DNA of 22,798 nt from a virus, in UHGV virus genome UHGV-0097493; one strand, given 5' to 3'. The position numbers and the translations under genes were made by a program. The notes under the pieces were generated by a model. That model was given only the letters and a program-made list of their open reading frames with translations. It ran no database searches and was not told the DNA's origin. Shown here in pieces: positions 3,724 to 22,798 of the stretch (positions are counted from its first letter, which is position 1; the number at the start of each line of letters is the position of its first letter).

Positions 3724-4806
3724 TTAGAACTGGTAAACCAGACCTACAGCAACGATGTCATCAGTATCAATACCAGCTGTTTTGGTAAACTTACTATCGT
3801 CAATTAAGTTGATTTTGTAATCAACAAAAGTGGACATGTTTTTATTAAAGTAGTAAGTAGCACCGACATCGACATACTTGACTAAGTCTCGGTCACCATG
3901 AACACCAAGGTCTTTACCTTTTGACTGAAGGTAAGCAACAGATGGGCGCAGACCGAAGTCAAACTGATATTGTGCTACTGCTTCAAAGTTTTGTGCTTTG
4001 TTTGCAATATGGTTATTACCAAAAACGGTCATATTCTGAGTTTCAGAATATGTGGTAGCCAGATAGATATTGTTCGCATCATATTTCAGGCCTGCAGCCC
4101 ATACTTCCGCATTTTTGCCGGAGGCATTGAATTTGCTCTTACCATAGGCGACCTGACCGTCAGTGCGATCTGATTTAGCATAGGTTGCACCCACGCCGAA
4201 TCCTTCATACTCATAAGTAGTGGAGAAACCGAAACCATCACCATTGGCTTCAGTTACGTCAGTGCGGTCATTTTTACCCTGATACTGAGCAGCAAAGTTC
4301 AGGCCATCGACCAGACCAAAGAAGTCGTTGTTACGATAAGTTGCAACACCAGTAGTGCGACCAGTCATGAACACATCTGTTTGGGTCCAGGTATCACCAC
4401 CGAATTCTGGCAGGACGTCAGTCCACGCACCGATGTCGTATGCTACACCGTAGTTACGGCCGTAATCGATTGAGCCGTAATCACCAAATTTCAGGCCTGC
4501 AAATGCAAGACGGGTTTTGTCTTTGGAAGAACCTTGAGATTCAGCGCGGTTGCCTTTGAATTCATATTCCCACTGACCGAAACCAGTCAGTTGATCGTTG
4601 ATTTGGGTTTCACCTTTGAAGCCAAGACGGGCATAAGTAGTATCACCATCATCTGCATCATTAGAGGAGAAGTAGTGCTTAGCATTAACTTTCCCGTACA
4701 GATCCAGCTTGTTACTGTCTTTATTATAAATTTCAGCTGCCTGAGCAGACATCGCCATCAGTACTGATGCAGCTACAGCAGAAATTGCCACTGTTAATTT
4801 TTTCAT
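3724..4806 (-). CDS. nmpC: Outer membrane general porin NmpC/Lc (OmpC/OmpF/PhoE family), intact, 360 aa
   Basis: Signal peptide [23 protein letters not shown] followed by [17 protein letters not shown]... The porin hallmark PEFGGDT and a C-terminal ...VGLVYQF (terminal Phe) are present. The sequence matches NmpC/Lc porin as recalled. RBS AAAGGG is upstream. Confidence 0.9.
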
Positions 4807-6092: not shown

Positions 6093-6547
6093 GCAGAGTA
6101 ACCGCGATTATCTCCGCTCTGGTTATCTGCATCATCGTCTGCCTGTCATGGGCTGTTAATCATTACCGTGATAACGCCATTACCTACAAAGCCCAGCGCG
6201 ACAAAAATGTCAGAGAACTGGAGAAGGCGAACGCCACCATCGCTGACATGCGGAAGCGTCAACGTGATGTAGCAGAACTCGATGCAAGATACACAAAGGA
6301 GCTTGCTGATGCTAACGCGACTATCGAAAGTCTCCGTGCTGATGTTTCTGCTGGGCGTAAGCGCCTGCAAGTCGCCGCCACCTGTGCAAAGTCAACGACC
6401 GGAGCCAGCAGCATGGGCGATGGAGAAAGCCCAAGACTTACAGCAGATGCTGAACTCAATTATTACCGTCTCCGAAGTGGAATCGACAAGATAACCGCGC
6501 AGGTTAACTACCTGCAGGAATACATCAGGACGCAATGCCTGAAATAA
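6089..6547 (+). CDS. Rz: Rz i-spanin (inner-membrane spanin subunit), 152 aa
   Basis: N-terminal TM segment ([20 protein letters not shown]) followed by a coiled-coil-rich periplasmic domain. ATG 6089 overlaps the endolysin stop (ATGA). RBS GGGGGA is upstream. The tool's GTG 6077 is less likely. Confidence 0.8.
6309..6494 (+). CDS. Rz1: Rz1 o-spanin lipoprotein, embedded in the +1 frame inside Rz, 61 aa
   Basis: [20 protein letters not shown] has a lipobox (VSAC) with Cys at residue 20, followed by a proline-rich [13 protein letters not shown] mature segment. The ORF lies entirely within Rz in another frame, the classic Rz/Rz1 arrangement. Confidence 0.7.
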
Positions 6548-6578
6548 TTTTTTTGCAAATCACAAAGTCCATTTAATG

Positions 6579-6602
6579 AGCCTCGCGATGCGGGGCTTTT
6601 TT
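6579..6602 (+). terminator. Intrinsic terminator after Rz/Rz1
   Basis: GCC(T)CGC-GAT-GCGGGGC hairpin (6580-6596, one G-U pair) followed by TTTTTT (6597-6602), 32 nt after the Rz stop. Confidence 0.55.
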
Positions 6603-6746
6603 ATATCTGAATTTCACAGCGCATCTCACGCGCATATTAACGAGAGCCTTTCAGTAAGCGAGCCTGAGAAATGCCGTTATAGGTGGCGACCTCTCTCGGG
6701 CGGCTTTTCTGTGAGACAGGCTCACTTTCTAAAAGGTAAAGACGCT

Positions 6747-7244
6747 ATGAAAGCAATCACGCTTTTTAATACACCGATCCGTGTTGATGAATCAGGAATG
6801 ATCTGCCTCACTGATATGTGGAAAGCCAGTGGTAAAAGTGAATCTGAATCTCCGTACCACTACCTGCGAAACAAGCAGACCAAAGAGTTCTTAGCCGAGC
6901 TGGAGAAAAACCACGAATCTGTGGTTTTTACTGAGCGCGGTGTACACGGTGGAACATATGGCGGGAAGTTTGTTGCTTATGATTATGCAGCATGGCTAAA
7001 CCCCGGATTTAAATATGCAGCCTATAAAGTCCTGGATGACTACTTCACCGGAGAACTTCAGCATCGCAACAGCTTAAGTGCGCAGCTCAACATGAAATGT
7101 CATGAGTTTGACCAGAAGAAAGACATGGCGAGCTTCTGCGGACAAGGGCTGGCAGCATGGCGCTATACGAAGCCAGTGTTGGTCGCTGAGATTAACTCCC
7201 TGGCTAACCAGCTGCAGATTACGATCCCCGGGCTTCCGGGATGA
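6747..7244 (+). CDS. KilA-N domain protein (second copy in window), 165 aa
   Basis: MKAITLFNTPIRVDESGMICLTDMWKASGKSESESPYHYLRNKQTKEFLAELEKN...GGTYGGKFVAYDYAAWLNPGFKYAAYKVLDDYF fits the KilA-N pattern. The 57-codon in-frame extension upstream to 6576 spans the terminator and is not protein-like, so ATG 6747 is used. Confidence 0.65.
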   Translation: MKAITLFNTPIRVDESGMICLTDMWKASGKSESESPYHYLRNKQTKEFLAELEKNHESVVFTERGVHGGTYGGKFVAYDYAAWLNPGFKYAAYKVLDDYFTGELQHRNSLSAQLNMKCHEFDQKKDMASFCGQGLAAWRYTKPVLVAEINSLANQLQITIPGLPG

Positions 7245-7498
7245 GTGATCGTGTTATTGAATGCGCCTCCAGAGCGGGGCGCGACTTCTCAGAGTTCATG
7301 AAAGGCGAGAAGGGCATGATGGAAGCATTGGCCTCGGTGGATGAGTTTGGCGAGCAGCTGCGCCTCAACGGCTGTGTCAATCATCACTTTGTTAGCTACA
7401 TGATGCGGAACTCGATCATGCAGGCATTCATGGACATGGCAAAAGCCGAGAGGAAAGAAGAGCGCCGGCGTAAGCGAGCGGAAGCAAAAGCGAAGTAG
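7241..7498 (+). CDS. Hypothetical small protein, 85 aa, with basic Lys/Arg/Glu-rich C-terminus
   Basis: The ORF start overlaps the KilA-N stop (ATGA at 7241-7244). The C-terminal AKAERKEERRRKRAEAKAK is a charged helix-like tail. No family is recognised. Confidence 0.45.
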   Translation: MSDRVIECASRAGRDFSEFMKGEKGMMEALASVDEFGEQLRLNGCVNHHFVSYMMRNSIMQAFMDMAKAERKEERRRKRAEAKAK

Positions 7499-9949: not shown

Positions 9950-12148
9950 ATGGCTGAAAAAAAGATGACTGACTGGCATCGCAGGGTGCTGTGCAACTTT
10001 GATAATGCCTGGTCAGCAACGCAGGATATGCGTGAGCAGATTATTGAGGCTCAACGTTTCGTCCGGGTATCCGGCGCACAGTGGGAAGGCAGCACAAACG
10101 CTGGTTACTCATTTGATGAAGGCAGGTTTGAGCATTACCCGCGCTTTGAACTGAATAAGATTTCCCGTGAATGTGATCGCATCATTGGCGAGTATCGACA
10201 GAATCGCATCAGCGTTAAATTCAGGCCGAAGGACGATAAGGCATCGGAAGCGTTAGCCGAAAAGATGAACGGAAAATTCCGCGCTGACTATCAGGAAACA
10301 TCCGGTGGCGAAGCGTGTGATAACGCATTTGATGATGCTGTAACGGGCGGATTCGGTTGTTTCCGCATGTGTGCCGATTACGAAGATGAAATGGATCCGA
10401 GTAACGAGCAACGCCGTATAAGCCTTCTCCCGGTTTACGACCCAGCGACATGCGTCTTCTTCGATCAGGACAGCAAGCAATATGACCGCTCTGATGCTAT
10501 GTGGGCTATGGAAATGTTCTCCATGACGCCTAAAGCGTTCGAGGCTGAATACCCTGATTCCATCGCGGCAAGCCTTTCTCGTGATGACACTGGTACTCAG
10601 TATGACTGGTCAACGCCTGACGCCATCTATGTTGGACGCTACTACGAAGTCCGCATAGAGAAGGTGAAGCTCACAGCATGGCGTAACCCTGTCAGCGGAG
10701 AAACGGCAATCTATGATGAAGAGCAAATCAAAGATATTGTCGACGAGCTGACCGATGGTGCATTCGAACTGATTGGCGAGCGAACGGTGAAGAAACGCCG
10801 AGTTTATTGCGGTCTTCTGTCTGGCGCTGAATGGCTGGAAGAACCGAAGCGTATTCCGGGCGAACATATTCCTCTCATCCCGGTATATGGGCGTCGTTCA
10901 TTTGTTGATAATCAGGAGCGAATCGAAGGCCACGCAGCAAAAGCGATGGATGCACAGCGTCTTGAGAACCTGATGGTTTCCATGATTGCAGATAACGCCA
11001 CTCAGGCTGGCGGTGATGGCATTCCTGTAGTTGATGTTGACATGATTCCTGGTCCTCTTGCCACTCATTGGGCGGAGCGCAACAAAAAGCGCCCGGCGTT
11101 CCTGCCGATGGTCAGTCTGAAAAACAAAAACGGAGATATTACTGCGCAGGCTCAGGTCAGCAGTTATACACCTCCGACACAAATGCCTCCTGCTCTTGCC
11201 GGGCTATTGCAGTACACCGGAACGGCTATTCAGCAAATTACAGGTGCGTCGCAGCTTGAGAACATGCCGAGCAACGTCGCCACCGATACCGTTGATAGCA
11301 TCTTTAACCGGATGGACACGCAGTCCTATATCTACATGGACAACATGGCTAAATCCATGCGTCGCGCTGGCGTTGTGTGGCTTTCTATGGCGCGTGAGGT
11401 CTATGGCAGTGATACGCCGATGCGTATCGTTAATGAGGACGGCAGCGATGACGTGGCGCTGATGACTGGTGAAGTGGTTGACCGTCAGACAGGGCAGGTT
11501 ATCGCGCTTAATGACCTTTCGCAGGGCAACTATGAAGTGACTGTCGATGTCGGTCAGTCGTTCGCTACTCGCCGTGATGCAACGGTTAAGTCGTTACTTT
11601 CCATGCTGGCACTTATCCCACCAGGAACGCAGAAGCACGACCTTGTATCGTCGATGATTCTCGACAATATGGACGGCGAAGGGATGGACGACCTTAAAGA
11701 ATACAACCGCAATCAGTTGCTTCTGTCTGGCGTTATCAAGCCGAGAACGCCTGAAGAACAGCAGATGGTTGAACAGGCGAAACAACAACAGGCCAGTCAG
11801 CCAGATCCGGCTATGGTTGCAGCGCAAGGTCAGCTTCTTGCAGGTCAGGCTGAATTGCAGAAAGCGCAGAACGAACAGGCAGCCATTCAGGTTAAAGCAT
11901 TCCAGGCACAGACTGATGCTCAGGTTGCAGCGGCAAACGTTGTGAAAATCCTCGCATCTGCCGATAGCCAGCAGAAATCTGATATCCGCGAGGCTCTGAA
12001 ACTGCTCGGACAGTTCCAGCAACAGCAAGGAGACAATGCCCGTGCTGATGCAGAGCTTGTCCTGAAAAGTCAGGCACAGGGTCATGCGCAGCGAATGGAC
12101 ATCAGCAGCATCCTGCAAAAATCAACCCAGCAACAATCACAGCAGTAA
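9950..12148 (+). CDS. Portal protein (P22 gp1-type), 732 aa
   Basis: Recognisable similarity to P22 portal from memory (e.g. ...KKRRVY..., [11 protein letters not shown]). The long C-terminal Gln/Ala-rich helical tail ([46 protein letters not shown]...) is characteristic of P22-like portal barrels. Confidence 0.9.
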   Translation: [732 protein letters not shown]

Positions 12149-18371: not shown

Positions 18372-19751
18372 ATGGCTACGTGGCAACAGGGTATTAATTC
18401 TGGTGGTTTTCTGGCTGGAATTGGTGCGCAAAACGAGAATGCGCCAAAGGCAAGCGACATTAATGCAACGCTTGGTCTGATTCGCGAAAACAATGAACTG
18501 GCTCGATCAGGTGCAAATAACGTTGGTCTGACCGCGTTACGTGGTCTGGCTGGAGTTGCTGATATTTATAAGCAGCAGCAACAGCAGGAACGTAAAGCGG
18601 CATTCCAGAAAGGTTATGCGGATGCTTATGCGTCCGGCGACAGGGAGCAGATGCGTAATCTTATTACAGCATTCCCCGAAGAGTTTGAGGAAGTTCGTAA
18701 AGGCATGGGGTATGTCGATGACGCCCAGCGGAATGATTTTGGCAATCTGGCGCTTAAGGCTCAGGTCGCTTCGTCGCTTGGTCCGGGTGCATTTGGCAGG
18801 TTCATGATGGATAACGAAAAGGAGATGCGTCGTTTAGGTATCCCTCCAGAAACTATTGCGGAAATGCAGGTTAATGACCCGCAGGGCTTCCAGCACTTCA
18901 CAGGTAATCTGGCACTATTTTCTCTCGGTCATGAGAAGTACTTCGATATCAAAGATCGAATGGAGGGGCGTCGACTTGAAGGAGAAAGAAATCAGTTAAC
19001 TGCTCGTGGTCAGGATATCACGATGCGCGGTCAGGATTTATCTGCTGCTACTGCACGGAGAGGTCAGGATTTAGCGATGCAGAGAGCATCAATGAAAGGG
19101 GCTGTTGGTAATAATGAGCGCACAGTTCAACTAGCAGACGGAAGAACTGTAACCGTAGGCGGGAAGCTTCATGGTGCAGGTGCTAACGCGTTCTACGAAG
19201 GAATAGACAATGAGGGGAACATGGTTCGCGTTCCTGCTGGCTCTATTGCTGCTCCGGCCACGTCGGCAGCAAGCGCGCAGAATTACGCAATGAAGAAAGA
19301 TCTTGATGCAATTTCTGGCGCATCAATTGACGATCTTGGCTTCATGACTGGCATTACAGGCTCTTCAGGTTCTCCTGCTCTTGGTGCAGATATTCGTAGC
19401 CGTGCCTCTGGTGGTGATCAGAGGAAACTATACAACGCTGCACAGCGAATCCAAGGAAAGATGCAGAATCAGGGCATTGCAGCAGCCAGAGACATGGGGG
19501 CATCTGGTATCAACACCGTTGCAGAAGCAAAGATGTATTTTCAAGGTATGCCACAGGTTGATTTCTCAAGCCCTGAAGCACTACAACAATCAATGCGCGA
19601 CATTCAGCAATATACCGACAATTACAACCAGCAATATAACGTTAATGTCGGTAATGGCGGGAAGAAATCATCAAGGCAACAGCCAGCTACTCAGCAATCA
19701 GCAGGAGGTAGCTACACGTCAAAATCAGGCATTCAATTTACGGTGGAATGA
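18372..19751 (+). CDS. Ejection protein (P22 gp20-like), 459 aa
   Basis: The position and the size (P22 gp20 ~471 aa) fit. Contains short RGQD tandem repeats. Confidence 0.65.
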
Positions 19752-21577
19752 TGAAAGTAACTGCAAACGGTAAGACATTTACCTTTCCTGATGGTACGAG
19801 CACCGAAGATATTGGCACCGCCATTGATGAGTATTTTGCTGGTCAGGCTGTTCAGCAACAAACAGTTAATCAGGCCAATAATGCACCAACACAGGAAGAA
19901 CCATCATTGATGCAACAAGCTGGCGATTGGCTCACTGGTGGTCAAAGTGCAGGGCAAATTGCAGAACAGGCTGGTCGTGGTCTGGTAAACATACCATTTG
20001 ACGTATTGCAGGGTGGCGCAAGTCTGATTAATGCAATCAGCCAGGGGCTTGGTGGTCACAAGGTTTTGGACGATGTCTATCGTCCAGTAGATCGACCAAC
20101 AGACCCTTATGCGCAAGCTGGAGAAACAATTGGCGGGTATTTAGTTCCAGGAGTTGGAACTGCAGGAAGCATGGCTATTGGATCACTGGCAGAAGCCGCA
20201 AACCAGAAAGGCGATTTCGCGCAAAATGCAGCCATAAACGCCGGAGTTAACCTTGCTGCTCAGGGTGTTCTTTCCGCAGCAGCAAAGGGAATAGGGCGTG
20301 GAATAACGGCTATAAAAGGCGATATCGCGCCAGAAGTAGCGAAAAAAATTGCCACCTCAGAATCGATGGGCGTGACACCAATGACATCTGATGTTATCCC
20401 GCCGAAAAATGCTTTCACTCGCGGCCTAACTCAGGATGCCGAGGGGGCTTTGCTCGGGACAGGCTCAAAGCGAGCTGAGCAGTATGCAAAAAGAAGTCAG
20501 CTAGTTAAAAAACAGCTTGAGAAATATGGTGAATATAGCCCATCAGTTGTTGTTGACGATCTGTATGGTTCTCTGAAGTCAAGGAAGGATTCGGCCGGAA
20601 GCGTTATTGAAGACATTACAGCCAAAATGGGAGACACACCAGTTGACACATCAAAATCTATTAAGGTTATCGACAACGTACTTACCAGAGCTAATAGGCT
20701 TGGGAAAGTGGCAAATAAGGATTTGATTCGCGGGTTATCCGATTTGCGAGAAGAACTTGCTAAACCAGATATAGATTTTGGTCTATTGAGAGAGTTGCGG
20801 TCAGCCTTGAGGGAAAGTATTCAGGGAGATGCCATGGTTTTTCCTAATAGCGCGAAAGCCGCAACTGATACCGTGGAGAGGGCAATGGGGGCAGATTTGA
20901 GGAATAACGCAGCGCGGTATTTGGGGGCTGGAGAGGCCGCCAGATACGTCAAGGCAAACTCTGACTACTCTAACGTCTTCAATAAGGTTCTTAATAAAAG
21001 GATTGCGAATAATCTCAACAAAGCTAAAAAAGAGTTTACTCCAGAGCTAATAAACAGTGTTGTATTCAGCAGAAAACCATCAGATATTAAGAGGATATGG
21101 CCAGCTCTTAGTGAAGATGGAAAGAACGCTATGCGTGCTGCTTATATCAGCAAGATTGCAGAAAAAGCAGGAGACTCGCCAACAAAATTTCTTACCGAGT
21201 TAAATAAGTTGAAGTCGCAATCTGACGGTCAGATCTATAACACGATATTCAGTGGGAGACACATGAAAGAGCTTGATGCTCTTCATGAAGTTCTACAGCA
21301 AACAGCAAGGTCGGACGCCGCAAATGTAGTAACACAGACAGGACAATCGCAAGCCAACAGGATAAGGACGATTGGCGCAACTGCGACTCTTGGCGTATCA
21401 ATGGGGCTTGAGGCTGGTTTCGGTGCAATGATGCGCTTGTATGAGTCAAAAGCAGCAAGGAATGCTCTCTTACGTTTGGCAAACACCAAAGCAGGAACGC
21501 CAGCCTATGAAAGAGCATTAAGTAACGCTGCAAATGCCATCAGACCGCTGCTTGCCACTGAGGCAACACAGCAGTGA
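19748..21577 (+). CDS. Ejection protein (P22 gp16-like), 609 aa
   Basis: The position after the gp20 homologue fits and the length is identical to P22 gp16 (609 aa). The start overlaps the upstream stop (ATGA). Confidence 0.65.
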
Positions 21578-21594
21578 CTAAATGCCATGGATGG

Positions 21595-21783
21595 TTATTT
21601 CCTTAGCACATGAAACAATGTTTGCTTTAATTCCACCCATACAATTATGACCACTATAGACAGACAAAAGAAACTGAATGCATTGGCATCACGATCGAAA
21701 CCTTCTCCGGCACTAAATCCGTAAAAGGTCATAAAAAATATAAAAATTGCGCACTTTGCAACGTTTACAAATTTTTTCTTCAC
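21595..21783 (-). CDS. Small two-TM membrane protein, 62 aa, distal gene of leftward operon
   Basis: GTG start preceded by a strong SD (AAGGAGG, 5-nt spacing). Two hydrophobic segments (AKCAIFIFFMTFYGF and FSFFCLSIVVIIVWV). Convergent with the gp16-like gene. Confidence 0.55.
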   Translation of the reverse strand: MKKKFVNVAKCAIFIFFMTFYGFSAGEGFDRDANAFSFFCLSIVVIIVWVELKQTLFHVLRK

Positions 21784-21843
21784 ACCAACCTCCTTAGTTT
21801 TGAGCAGGATACCAGATGATAATGTGTCGCTTCCTAAAGGATA

Positions 21844-22485
21844 TCAAAGCAACGGGATTTCAAGGTAAACTGCGGTTGCCAAAATACTAACATCTTCATT
21901 TCTAACAAGAATATTAGGATACATTGGGTTTAGGGATACTAGGTTTGTCTCTATTTCACCAATGTAAACCTGTTTGAAGCTCAATATTTGCTCTTTATCC
22001 AATGATGCTATTACATAATCTTTGCTTTTAGCTTTTACTAGAGGGCTGAACGTGACAACCGATCCTCTGGGAAAGCTAATACCTGAACTTGTAGTCATAG
22101 CTTCACCTTCAATAGTCAATGCAAATGCAGAGTCACCAACATTGTATATTGCCGGATGAAATCTAGACGATGAATGTTCACCTGTGTTTAGGTAATGCAT
22201 AACTTCATCTAGTTTGAGGATTGGTATTTGCTTTACCAGAACGTCAGGCATGACGTTTTTTGTTCCCGGACCCTGACCTTCACCTAGAGCTAACCACTCA
22301 GCTGTAGTACCTAATGCGTTGGCTAATGCCTGCAATACCCGAAGCCGTGGTTTAGCCTCACCACCCTCGTATGCAGCTATTTGACGTTGAACAACACCAG
22401 CTAATTTTGACAACTGCGCCTGCGTCATACCCCTGGACTGTCTTGCCAGAGATACTCTTGATGGGAATTGATCGTCAAAATTCAT
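21844..22485 (-). CDS. CI/LexA-like repressor: N-terminal HTH_XRE plus C-terminal S24-peptidase-fold domain with Ala in place of the nucleophilic Ser, 213 aa
   Basis: The HTH is LARQSRGMTQAQLSKLAGVVQRQIAAYEGGEAKP. The C-terminal domain aligns by eye to lambda CI (recalled [28 protein letters not shown]...FTFKKL...LNPQYPMIP) as VGDSAFALTIEGEAMTTSSGISFPRG...LSFKQ...LNPMYPNIL. Confidence 0.8.
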   Translation of the reverse strand: MNFDDQFPSRVSLARQSRGMTQAQLSKLAGVVQRQIAAYEGGEAKPRLRVLQALANALGTTAEWLALGEGQGPGTKNVMPDVLVKQIPILKLDEVMHYLNTGEHSSSRFHPAIYNVGDSAFALTIEGEAMTTSSGISFPRGSVVTFSPLVKAKSKDYVIASLDKEQILSFKQVYIGEIETNLVSLNPMYPNILVRNEDVSILATAVYLEIPLL

Positions 22486-22506
22486 TAGTTCACCATAAAA
22501 AATTCA

Positions 22507-22536
22507 TTGACTCATGCTGAGTGTGAGTGAATAATC
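22507..22536 (+). promoter_or_regulatory. Candidate sigma70 promoter for the rightward Arc-like gene, within the divergent control region
   Basis: TTGACT (22507-22512), 18-bp spacer, TG-n-ATAATC (22528-22536). Inverted and direct GAGTG-type repeats overlap it (ACTCA-TGC-TGAGT; GAGTGTGAGTG), suggesting operators. Confidence 0.4.
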
Positions 22537-22584
22537 AAACTACAAAAAGTGAGATTATGAGTTTTTTAAAAACAGGAGTGCATA

Positions 22585-22773
22585 ATGACTGAAAAGATAT
22601 CTTCCATCAAGCCGCGTCAGGTTCGTTTTACAGAAAAGGTTGATTCACATATCCGCGAATCAGCAAAAAGATGCCATAGGTCAATTCAGGCAGAGATAGC
22701 TTATCGAATGGAGTTATTGATGAAACTTGAGGCAAAGGGCGATGTGAACCGCCCCGGGAATCCTGGAGACTAA
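22585..22773 (+). CDS. Arc/Mnt-like ribbon-helix-helix (CopG-family) regulator, 62 aa
   Basis: RQVRFTEKVDSHIRESAKRCHRSIQAEIAYRMELLMKLE fits the RHH pattern (beta strand then two helices; compare recalled Arc ...FNLRWPREVLDLVRKVAEENGRSVNSEIYQRVMESFKKE). RBS AGGAG lies 7 nt upstream. An RBS-like AGAAAGAGG at 22785-22793 suggests another gene starts just beyond the window. Confidence 0.6.
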   Translation: MTEKISSIKPRQVRFTEKVDSHIRESAKRCHRSIQAEIAYRMELLMKLEAKGDVNRPGNPGD

Positions 22774-22798
22774 ACTTCCTGAGAAAGAGGTAAACAGG

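Follow-up and report, generated by a model that had tools for sequence, protein, structure and literature searches.

The locus considered here forms the right-hand end (positions 21,595 to 22,798) of the virus genome UHGV-0097493, whose whole 22,798-nt stretch is called the window below. Its features are the following:

21595-21783, minus strand: orf62, 62 codons with a GTG start, encoding a predicted two-TM protein (two hydrophobic 19-mers), convergent with gene 16
21789-21795, minus strand: Shine-Dalgarno sequence AAGGAGG, 5 nt upstream of the orf62 GTG, read from the sequence
21844-22485, minus strand: CI-like repressor of 213 aa with an N-terminal HTH_3 domain and a C-terminal domain of S24 fold (Ala129, no Ala-Gly, Lys171 kept)
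22486-22584, no strand: divergent control region, that is, the 99-bp spacer between the CI-like and RHH genes, with a length conserved in 14 of 14 diverse loci
22507-22535, plus strand: sigma-70-type promoter TTGACT-17-AATAAT (the Pant equivalent), facing the RHH/ant operon, with 10/12 consensus matches
22510-22562, plus strand: candidate operator elements, namely ACTCAT at 22510-22515 (overlapping the -35 box), TGAGTG TGAGTG at 22518-22529, GTGAG at 22549 and an inverted ATGAGT at 22557-22562
22585-22746, plus strand: codons 1-54 of a 57-aa Arc-like RHH gene, the native end taken from the JEP4 alignment, with an AGGAG RBS at 22574-22578
22745-22798, plus strand: left terminal 54 nt of IS629 (IS3 family), identical at 54/54 nt to the phi456 (OR339795) element annotated as IS629 OrfA/OrfB

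The locus is situated directly after the gp20/gp16 ejection genes, where the upstream ORFs encode a protein matching the P22 injectosome translocase of Pfam (E 5e-73) and a member of the gp16 family, and the initial annotation was right to place it in the slot of the P22 immI region. Positions 21455-22745 are 99% identical in DNA to phage JEP4 (MT740315), and a 99% identical locus is also present in at least 19 complete E. coli genomes. In the intact architecture, which is found in JEP4, E. coli UTAK-8, E. coli HS and E272, gp16 is followed by orf62 or a SieA-like gene and the CI-like gene (leftward), then by the 57-aa RHH gene, two Ant-family genes and orf73 (rightward), and finally by an Mnt homologue (leftward) and the tailspike gene. 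The latter is beyond the window, and lies downstream in JEP4, UTAK-8, HS and one further locus (L010). The antirepressor and tailspike that had been anticipated downstream are indeed there in the intact relatives.

Judged by sequence comparison, the locus is the same element as the "HS-1-type ant moron" of Villafane et al. 2008 (PMC2629481), where this type was already drawn for the E. coli HS prophage (Fig. 3). The CI-like protein is identical (WP_001008290.1, and also JEP4_14), as is the RHH protein over codons 1-54. The two copies differ in their cargo, the window having orf62 where HS-1 has a SieA-like gene, and in their insertions, since the window has IS629 in the RHH gene whereas HS-1 has an IS3-family element, inserted independently, in the second Ant gene. 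The composition, which had been called unusual, is that of a recurrent type. Literature searches returned no functional study of the HS-1 moron type or of the JEP4 locus, and no experimental characterisation of the three window proteins was found in searchable papers.

We consider it rather likely that the locus represents the left end of a secondary-immunity cassette for antirepressor control in a P22-like prophage, of a type that is catalogued yet unstudied. The prophage itself appears, with similar confidence, to be of the CUS-3/phiv205-1-like type, with the cassette in the P22 immI slot. CUS-3, which has the closest virion genes, does not carry the same cassette, its moron comprising two mnt genes and ant without a CI-like gene. 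A role as the primary immunity region was rejected, since the E272 prophage has a separate region of this kind upstream with its own LexA-family cI, cro and cII. The apparent 'replication protein' neighbour in E272 is the result of a deletion of the late region.

It is important to point out that the rightward gene is interrupted in the window. IS629 lies inside it, 3 codons (10 nt) before the native stop, and the match to JEP4 ends exactly at the junction, which can be placed only to within 1 nt, as the T at 22745 fits both sides. Because 22745-22798 is the left inverted-repeat end of IS629, the last 8 codons and the stop of the rightward ORF (22585-22773, plus strand, 62 codons) are IS sequence, preceded by 54 native residues that are all identical to JEP4 (54/54, tblastn). 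The native protein has 57 residues and ends in ...GDVVIQ in the JEP4 alignment. The insertion replaces its C-terminal VIQ by NRPGNPGD, and V55, I56 and Q57 are each at least 90% conserved. The earlier description of a 62-aa RHH gene is probably right about the Arc-like character, to which weak profile matches point, while the length is an artefact of IS629. Similarly, the gene said to start at the window edge, a candidate antirepressor, is the transposase gene orfA of IS629, whose ATG would be formed by the next three bases past 22798. The orfA/orfB genes themselves, the right inverted repeat and the target-site duplication would all fall outside the window.

With the RHH gene running into IS629, there is no antirepressor gene within the window, and the element separates the promoter and the RHH gene from whatever antirepressor genes remain. 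Past IS629, the sequence would be expected to resume with ...TTGTCATCCAATAA / ...TGTCATCCAATAA, followed by the Ant genes. Of 5,426 E. coli genomes, 3,282 contain the same IS629 end (~55-64 nt), as do ~90 unrelated phage records, most of them from Stx phages. The junction of this end with the RHH gene was found neither in these 5,426 genomes nor in viral or metagenome contigs.

The absence of the junction from these collections, the altered C-terminus of a conserved protein and the independent insertion in HS-1 are what one would expect if the window cassette were a disabled remnant, in which IS629 has silenced the antirepressor arm as a neutral or stabilising step of prophage domestication and the repressor is left without a target. 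We judge the chances of this to be about even. However, the CI-like protein is 100% identical to that of JEP4, an isolated phage, and so are RHH codons 1-54, which means that there is no decay yet in the window cassette. Furthermore, the ends of IS3-family elements can create outward promoters, and the genes beyond IS629 need therefore not be silent.

The arrangement was examined in detail at 14 loci (two of which, L007 and L008, duplicate the arrangement of L009). The CI-like gene is divergent from a 56-57-aa gene that is followed by Ant-family genes, and the distance between the two is ~97-100 bp, as derived from extracted control segments of 103-106 nt that include both start codons. Repressor, RHH and Ant genes stay linked while the identity of the repressor ranges from 37% to 100%, and they do so in P22-like contexts, next to an integrase, and at loci without a gp16, gp20 or tailspike homologue within 4 kb. 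By this distribution, the cassette is evidently portable and occurs outside P22-like phages too. The Ant-family genes of the relatives match PHROG 245 (E 4e-50) and PHROG 1726 (E 2e-102), and the Pfam families P22_AR_N, P22_AR_C and Bro-N. Wherever a family could be assigned, the gene after RHH belongs to the Ant family, the remaining loci being judged by their N-terminal sequence. The initial annotation had named a downstream gene other than an antirepressor as a point that would count against it; this is what the window copy has, owing to IS629, but not what the family has, where Ant genes follow.

The identification of the 57-aa protein as Arc-like is probable, and comes from several consistent but weak profile matches. 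The window protein gives weak Pfam matches to Arc and ParD_like, the best single one being ParD_like (E 6e-4). Across the members of the family, the best values are E 2.6e-4 for Arc, E 2.6e-4 for ParD_like and E 4.6e-3 for RHH_5, none of which reaches the gathering score. These main matches are all to RHH-clan families, and the remainder are single-member matches at chance level. With the family profile, the top PDB matches are CopG (E 0.008), pArc (E 0.009), AmrZ (E 0.01), Arc and Mnt, all in register, and a comparison by hhalign with the Arc/Mnt proteins that these same phages encode yields a probability of 79% (P 1.5e-5). The AF2 model of the monomer, made with a shallow alignment of 24 close sequences, has one helix at residues 10-50 (pLDDT 81) and not strand-helix-helix; RHH proteins are obligate dimers.

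The operon of the intact relatives may also retain traces of the antisense control known from P22. Rfam sar (RF00262) aligns at full length with the RHH-Ant spacers of four loci at 29-41 bits, which is below the cut-off of 43, with UPF_BP1 as positive control at 95.6 bits. The JEP4 spacer gave no match to this model, and the window itself, from which this spacer is missing because it falls beyond IS629, had zero Rfam matches even at E up to 1. A terminator hairpin in the RHH-Ant spacer shows covariation in 7 of 11 pairs, and the antisense strand is the more stable one in 13 of 14 loci. A sar-like antisense element probably persists in the RHH-Ant spacer of the relatives. The Mnt homologue is ~2 kb off in the intact relatives, where it adjoins the tailspike gene and is not divergent from Pant.

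In the 99-bp control region, the good promoter that had been reported holds up. Its -35 box TTGACTCAT is kept across loci whose flanking DNA has diverged, and it is overlapped by the sole spacer motif with strong conservation. TTGAC has the same offset in 12 of 14 loci, and most loci have an RTGARY element ~40 bp further downstream. Among the candidate operator elements, ACTCAT and ATGAGT are shared across loci, while the TGAGTG tandem is clade-specific. The repeated GAGTG elements pointed out previously are also real, with 3 copies in 99 bp versus a background of 0.056 per 99 bp, and 3 copies on one strand per 99 bp are found only at positions overlapping the control region (38 of ~22,700). 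However, GAGTG was rejected as a conserved operator, because 10 of 13 orthologous control regions lack it and the other 3 have a single copy each. A scan combined with inspection by eye gave nothing convincing for a leftward promoter of the CI-like gene in the spacer, nor for a single dyad-symmetric operator common to all loci.

The leftward gene was correctly described as HTH plus S24-fold CI-like. The Pfam scores are 48.4 bits for HTH_3 (E 9e-13) and 47.9 bits for Peptidase_S24 (E 1e-12), with cut-offs of ~23, and the gene takes the place of Mnt beside an ant-type promoter. The AF2 model (pLDDT 86) has as its best Foldseek matches the lambda repressor 3bdn (E 2e-11) and 1f39, the C-terminal domain of that repressor (rmsd 1.8 A, TM 0.84). 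With lambda CI and LexA (MEROPS S24) the protein shares the two-domain architecture, the fold and the general-base lysine, Lys192 of lambda CI being aligned with Lys171 (SFKQ). Unlike them, however, it has Ala in place of the nucleophilic Ser, as Ser149 is opposite Ala129 (EGEAM), and the position of the scissile Ala-Gly bond is occupied by Glu-Val (...LDEVMH...) in a table of 34 family members. In this table, GDSM is the motif of most members, against EGEAM or GDAM in the window clade, and the canonical Ala-Gly site is kept in 1 of the 34 (P0016, ...IMAGA...). Because both the nucleophile and the Ala-Gly site are missing, the protein, although of lambda-CI fold, is predicted to have lost the chemistry of self-cleavage and to be unable to cleave itself. 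It also differs from lambda CI and LexA in being a second repressor, beside the immC repressor of the prophage.

These features bear directly on the option of an SOS-responsive switch of the LexA type, in which cleavage of the CI-like protein upon damage would turn on the antirepressor operon, similar to Tum and the Gifsy antirepressors with their control by LexA. An S24 domain that exceeds the Pfam cut-off, the lambda-CI fold and the RefSeq name in one genome ('LexA family transcriptional regulator') would fit such a role. Moreover, most of the distant relatives keep GDSM together with the lysine, and P0016 keeps Ala-Gly, so the ancestor was probably cleavable. Against this stand Ala129 at the nucleophile and Glu-Val at the scissile position, and no LexA box (CTGT-N8-ACAG) was seen in the spacer when reading the sequence by eye. 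This switch is thus very unlikely.

The mechanism that we propose instead starts from the observed gene content, loss of the catalytic residue, IS junction and conserved synteny, from which the binding sites and the direction of regulation may be as follows. In the lysogen, the CI-like protein expressed from the leftward operon would bind the 99-bp region and shut the rightward promoter, thereby doing the job that Mnt has in P22. Since the protein could not be removed by RecA-stimulated self-cleavage, this repression would be blind to the SOS response. The Arc-like RHH protein most likely would feed back on the same promoter and limit the antirepressor burst after infection, as Arc does. In the intact relatives, the operon continues with the putative sar-like antisense element, the two Ant-family genes and orf73, ahead of the leftward Mnt homologue and the tailspike gene, and the slot behind the repressor would hold cargo expressed in the lysogen, namely orf62 here and the SieA-like gene in E. 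coli HS. As a whole, this mechanism of a portable CI-like/RHH/Ant cassette, cut by IS629 in the present copy, is in our view reasonably probable.

The persisting Mnt homologue in the intact P22-like copies counts against the proposed role of the CI-like protein. Namely, the latter could mainly regulate its own leftward operon with the cargo, leaving the antirepressor promoter to the RHH protein alone or to the distant Mnt. The variable cargo behind the repressor, including the SieA-like gene in E. coli HS, is in line with this, as is the fact that no operator could be assigned to the CI-like protein. However, the pairing of the repressor with RHH-Ant at a fixed ~99 bp is kept despite differing cargo, and also at loci with no detected Mnt homologue nearby. 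In addition, the repressor alignment shows no variation in the predicted recognition-helix segment (V32, R34-E40), and the sole strongly conserved motif is at the rightward -35 box. We therefore find it quite unlikely that the repressor serves mainly its own operon.

Secondary immunity has its textbook example in the P22 immI region, which lies between genes 16 and 9 and comprises mnt / arc-sar-ant together with sieA. The cassette proposed here resembles it in occupying the same slot after gp20/gp16, and in having a leftward repressor operon with exclusion-type cargo that is divergent from a strong promoter driving a small, probably RHH-type gene first. In intact relatives, the putative antisense-RNA-type spacer, the Ant-family genes and the downstream tailspike are further points of likeness. 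On the other hand, the divergent repressor is a 213-aa protein with HTH and S24 fold, whereas that of P22 is the 83-aa RHH protein Mnt. The relatives differ from P22 also in having two Ant-family genes and orf73, with the Mnt homologue far to the right by the tailspike, and the similarity of the RHH protein to Arc is remote. Finally, sieA is absent from the window, with orf62 in its place.

In the Gifsy phages, the primary repressors are reportedly non-cleavable, with antirepressors that act on them in trans and an antirepressor gene under the control of the host LexA. The common element is a repressor that does not cleave itself alongside Ant-type proteins. However, the non-cleavable protein of the present cassette appears to control the antirepressor operon itself, and not to be the primary repressor.

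If the gatekeeper of the operon is deaf to RecA, it would need another inactivating input, which could for example be the antirepressor of another phage or a superinfecting relative. One can speculate further that the cassette is a self-contained mobile antirepressor switch, with an arc-sar-ant half homologous to P22 immI and a CI-like pseudo-protease replacing Mnt, which would serve as an SOS-independent relay for cross-talk between prophages and would also account for the control of ant in morons seemingly without arc. We regard this extended version as unlikely.

We know of no study of the other ant-moron types of P22-like prophages. The description of these morons mentions an 'apparent lack of arc genes', and leaves open how ant is controlled where arc is seemingly missing (Villafane et al. 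2008, PMC2629481). The present analysis offers testable answers to this question: arc probably has its counterpart in the overlooked 57-aa gene, the sar-like element is probably kept, and the role of Mnt apparently lies with a protease-dead CI-like protein. If this is true, regulators would be exchanged as modules while the arc-sar-ant core between them is conserved, and this in a cassette that is mobile beyond P22-like phages as well. The window as such is more ordinary: databases already contain the cassette at 99% identity, and the present copy is interrupted by IS629.

For orf62, the two hydrophobic 19-mers reach Kyte-Doolittle values of up to 1.7 and 2.2, and together with the AAGGAGG they bear out the strong RBS and the two-TM character noted before. 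The gene had also been taken as co-transcribed with the CI-like gene. The ORF is real, but it is not specifically linked to the repressor: it goes with the 3' end of gene 16, and is found behind different upstream genes in other phages. On this evidence, orf62 is best seen as an independently assorting unit attached to the gp16 end, not specific to the CI-like gene.

A superinfection-exclusion role, as suggested initially for the locus, is not supported for the small membrane protein orf62. The candidate identity with SieA was rejected, since there is no SieA-like PHROG match; in E. coli HS, the slot is filled by an unrelated SieA-like protein of 212 aa (PHROG 7745). The identity with the 'orf62' of phage L (PMC8022706) was likewise rejected, as tblastn finds the present gene in 4 phage records, with phage L, ST64T and P22 not among them. 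No match was obtained in Pfam, NCBIfam or PADLOC.

The three genes have also been considered as a defence or toxin-antitoxin module unrelated to antirepression, with the RHH protein as antitoxin, orf62 as effector and the HTH protein as regulator. Such a module could account for the best single Pfam match of the RHH protein being an antitoxin family, for the presence of a small membrane protein, and for the PADLOC matches of the HTH part to RmrA and CapH. However, PADLOC gave nothing beyond this generic HTH, with both orf62 and the RHH protein unmatched; an Ant-family gene follows RHH in each locus with a family assignment, and orf62 assorts independently of the repressor. This makes the module extremely improbable.

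The sole PHROG match of orf62 is PHROG 21338, of unknown function, over the full length (E 5e-45). Homologues of 62 aa with 77-81% identity are present in Salmonella and Serratia, and compared to the Salmonella copy there are 7 synonymous and 13 non-synonymous codon changes, which is a weak signal of purifying selection.

The locus closes a P22-like late region (RusA, Q, porin gene, lysozyme, terminase, P22 portal) whose virion genes are nearest those of phiv205-1, CUS-3 and Sf101, with 92–94% identity. Its 5′ neighbours encode a P22 injectosome translocase and a gp16-family protein. The open reading frames, ribosome-binding site, promoter and GAGTG repeats listed in the initial annotation are all present as described, and its reading of the module as immI-like, combining a CI-like repressor with an Arc-like gene, holds in kind. 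The open reading frames are the following:

21595–21783, minus strand: orf62, 62 codons, GTG start, AAGGAGG site 5 nt upstream
21844–22485, minus strand: CI-like gene, 213 aa, passes the Pfam cut-offs for HTH_3 (E 9e-13) and Peptidase_S24 (E 1e-12)
22585–22773, plus strand: putative ribbon-helix-helix (RHH) gene, 62 codons, weak Pfam matches only (ParD_like and Arc)

The right-hand end needs to be corrected. In megablast, a query of 21400–22798 aligns at 99.2% identity with phage JEP4, which carries an intact copy of the locus, and this match stops at 22745. The final 55–64 bases instead match ca 90 unrelated records, mostly Stx phages, and in phage phi456 the same end sequence lies immediately 5′ of genes annotated as IS629 OrfA and OrfB transposase. 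A three-way alignment places the switch point at ...GGCGATG-TGAACCGCCCCGGG... in the window versus ...GGCGATG-TTGTCATCCAATAA in JEP4. The native RHH gene thus encodes 57 aa ending in GDVVIQ, and the 62-aa product consists of 54 native residues followed by NRPGNPGD from the insertion sequence. The further gene suspected at the window edge is IS629 orfA, a point on which the initial annotation erred. No copy of the junction was found in 5,426 complete E. coli genomes, viral contigs or metagenome contigs, so the insertion looks private to the source strain. Prophage HS-1 of E. coli HS has an IS3-family insertion in its second antirepressor (Ant) gene (10260–11407 of the extracted locus, L006). 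The same operon has been struck by two independent IS3-family insertions, possibly a sign that the ant arm is repeatedly disabled in resident prophages.

In JEP4 and the prophages of E. coli UTAK-8, HS and E272, a common order of nine elements was found, with families assigned by PHROG:

1: gp16
2: orf62, unannotated (in HS a 212-aa gene instead)
3: CI-like gene, leftward, protein identical in all four (WP_001008290.1)
4: 57-aa gene, rightward (WP_021518013.1)
5: Ant-family gene with Bro-N/P22_AR_C
6: second antirepressor-family gene (PHROG 1726)
7: orf73
8: Mnt homologue, leftward
9: tailspike gene

Contrary to what had been proposed, the composition is not novel; this "ant moron" region was already drawn for 16 P22-like phages, among them HS-1 and its IS3 element (Villafane et al. 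2008, PMC2629481). Our literature searches found no functional work on it after 2008. The moron of CUS-3, in contrast, is of a different type. The E272 prophage has in addition its own, separate LexA-family cI, accompanied by cro and cII, which makes the CI-like protein a second repressor. This prophage is itself deleted: at 6200–7705 of L004 its replication gene is joined straight to the CI-like gene. The late region, nin through gp16, has gone entirely, whereas the ant cassette, Mnt and tailspike are kept.

We now consider the CI-like protein itself. In a HMMER alignment to lambda CI, Ser149 (EGNSM) is opposite Ala129 (EGEAM), while Lys192 is opposite Lys171. Among 34 family members (37–99% identity), the nucleophile position is Ala in the window's clade (EGEAM or GDAM), GDSM is kept in most others, and a distant clade (P0022, L024, L025) has DPAM, an independent loss. 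The canonical Ala-Gly site is retained in one member and gone in 33 of 34. The structures closest to the AlphaFold2 model (pLDDT 86) are full-length lambda repressor 3bdn (E 2e-11) and the lambda C-terminal domain 1f39, with an rmsd of 1.8 Å (TM 0.84). By these results the protein is a lambda-CI-like repressor that is unable to cleave itself as a serine protease. The S24 nucleophile Ser has been lost independently at least twice in the family, and the near-complete loss of Ala-Gly suggests a family-wide drift away from self-cleavage. In a 23-sequence alignment, V32 and R34–E40 are invariant in the predicted recognition-helix segment VVQRQIAAYE. Among isolated phages the gene is rare, occurring in 2 of 50,697 records.

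The 57-aa protein has close homologues across Enterobacterales (75–93% identity), and the partners adjoining distant CI-like genes, of 56–57 aa, are 27–39% identical. These divergent partners share the pattern Y/F-R-x-x-P-E ... R-S-x-Q ... E-x-K-G. The family profile best matches CopG (E 0.008), single-chain Arc (0.009), AmrZ (0.01), Arc (0.07–0.1) and Mnt (0.4) in the PDB, always with the register kept from strand to helix B, and a comparison with the Arc/Mnt proteins of the phages themselves reaches a probability of 79% in hhalign (P 1.5e-5). The main Pfam matches (Arc, RHH_5, ParD_like) belong to the RHH clan, every one being sub-threshold, and the remaining listed families are each hit by a single homologue, at chance level. 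The AlphaFold2 monomer model is one long helix; as it was built from 24 close sequences, and RHH proteins are obligate intertwined dimers, we treat it as uninformative, yet it lends the fold no support. We consider the assignment as an RHH protein very probable.

Fourteen loci were examined closely; L007 and L008 show the arrangement of L009 again. In the 14, the CI-like gene diverges from the 56–57-aa gene, with Ant-family genes next. The hosts are Salmonella, Leclercia, Yersinia, Klebsiella, Tatumella, Providencia, Xenorhabdus, Morganella and an Enterobacterales isolate. The cassette occupies the gp16–tailspike slot in five loci, the Salmonella Kottbus copies adjoin an integrase, and no homologue of gp16, gp20 or the tailspike lies within 4 kb of the ten genome-scan loci. 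Judged from these varied surroundings, the repressor–RHH–Ant unit is a mobile cassette.

The CI-like/RHH spacer is ca 97–100 bp (extracted segments of 103–106 nt include both start codons). The 99-bp spacer of the window contains TTGACT-17-AATAAT, with 10/12 consensus matches, and three copies of GAGTG, where the background is 0.056 per 99 bp; elsewhere in the window, no 99-bp stretch reaches three copies on a single strand. TTGAC(TCAT) stands at a constant offset in 12/14 spacers, with an RTGARY element, the inverted ACTCAT, some 40 bp downstream; at that position the window has GTGAGA, followed 8 bp later by an additional ATGAGT. Only the window's clade has the TGAGTG tandem between −35 and −10. 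Comparing the spacers, we could assign no operators and found no convincing leftward promoter.

Directly after the RHH stop codon, a GC-rich hairpin is found in all 14 loci, outside the window, where such an element would fall beyond the IS:

7302–7380 of the JEP4 locus (L001): sar-like element in the RHH–Ant spacer; also in L009, L010, L013 and L016–L025

The hairpin is more stable on the antisense strand in 13/14 loci (mean −21.3 versus −15.7 kcal mol−1, Wilcoxon p 0.0004), is followed there by a U-run, and shows compensatory changes at 7/11 pairs. Read on that strand, it is a terminator hairpin whose end coincides with the RHH stop codon. By inspection only, a second antisense hairpin upstream of the first places UUCCU opposite the Ant ribosome-binding site; it was neither aligned by MAFFT nor predicted by RNAalifold. 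In UPF_BP1, the P22-type arc-ant spacer reaches 95.6 bits with Rfam sar (RF00262). Four cassette loci match this family full-length at 41.4, 40.0, 34.2 and 29.4 bits, all below the cut-off of 43. These data support homology of the RHH–spacer–Ant half to P22 arc-sar-ant. The JEP4 RHH–Ant spacer gave no RF00262 match, and sar family membership is at best putative for the window's own lineage.

The membrane protein had been linked to the repressor operon, which the comparisons contradict. orf62, whose product has two hydrophobic stretches (Kyte-Doolittle 19-mer maxima 1.7 and 2.2), matches PHROG 21338 over its full length and occurs, unannotated, in JEP4, phiv205-1 and UPF_BP1. In every case it is the final leftward gene and abuts gp16, but what precedes it varies: the CI-like gene, a 161-aa gene, or mnt of the P22 type together with its neighbours. 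The stretch of 99% identity to phiv205-1 and UPF_BP1 comprises only the gp16 3′ end and orf62. By this pattern orf62 is an independent mosaic unit. It is possibly read through from the repressor operon; a promoter-like TTGATA-17-CATTAT (21819–21847, minus strand, 9/12 matches) overlaps the CI-like stop codon and faces orf62, which may thus have its own promoter and no need of read-through. A sharp mosaic boundary lies at ca 21455 within gene 16 (19748–21577): JEP4, phiv205-1 and UPF_BP1 match the final ca 120 nt of the gene and orf62 at 99% identity, but their gp16 proteins are otherwise only ca 55% identical to that of the window. Relative to the Salmonella copy, orf62 has 7 synonymous and 13 non-synonymous codon changes, a weak sign of purifying selection. 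The gene filling its slot in E. coli HS is SieA-like, which fits a slot for lysogen cargo and has no direct word on orf62.

The most likely mechanism, each regulatory step of which we infer, would be Mnt-like maintenance repression by the non-cleavable CI-like protein alongside Arc-like feedback by the Arc-like gene product, with the window copy uncoupled from its antirepressor genes by IS629.

Elsewhere in the prophage, two more KilA-N domain proteins are encoded (1327–2136 and 6576–7244, both plus strand), the latter also with an ORF11CD3 domain and located between the lysis and terminase genes; they may be extra Ant/Bro-type regulators outside the immI slot. The complete porin gene (3724–4806, minus strand, 360 aa, Gram-negative Porin_1, E 2e-151) lies on the opposite strand, flanked by the Q antiterminator gene and the lysis genes, and looks like a phage-borne OmpC/NmpC-type moron.
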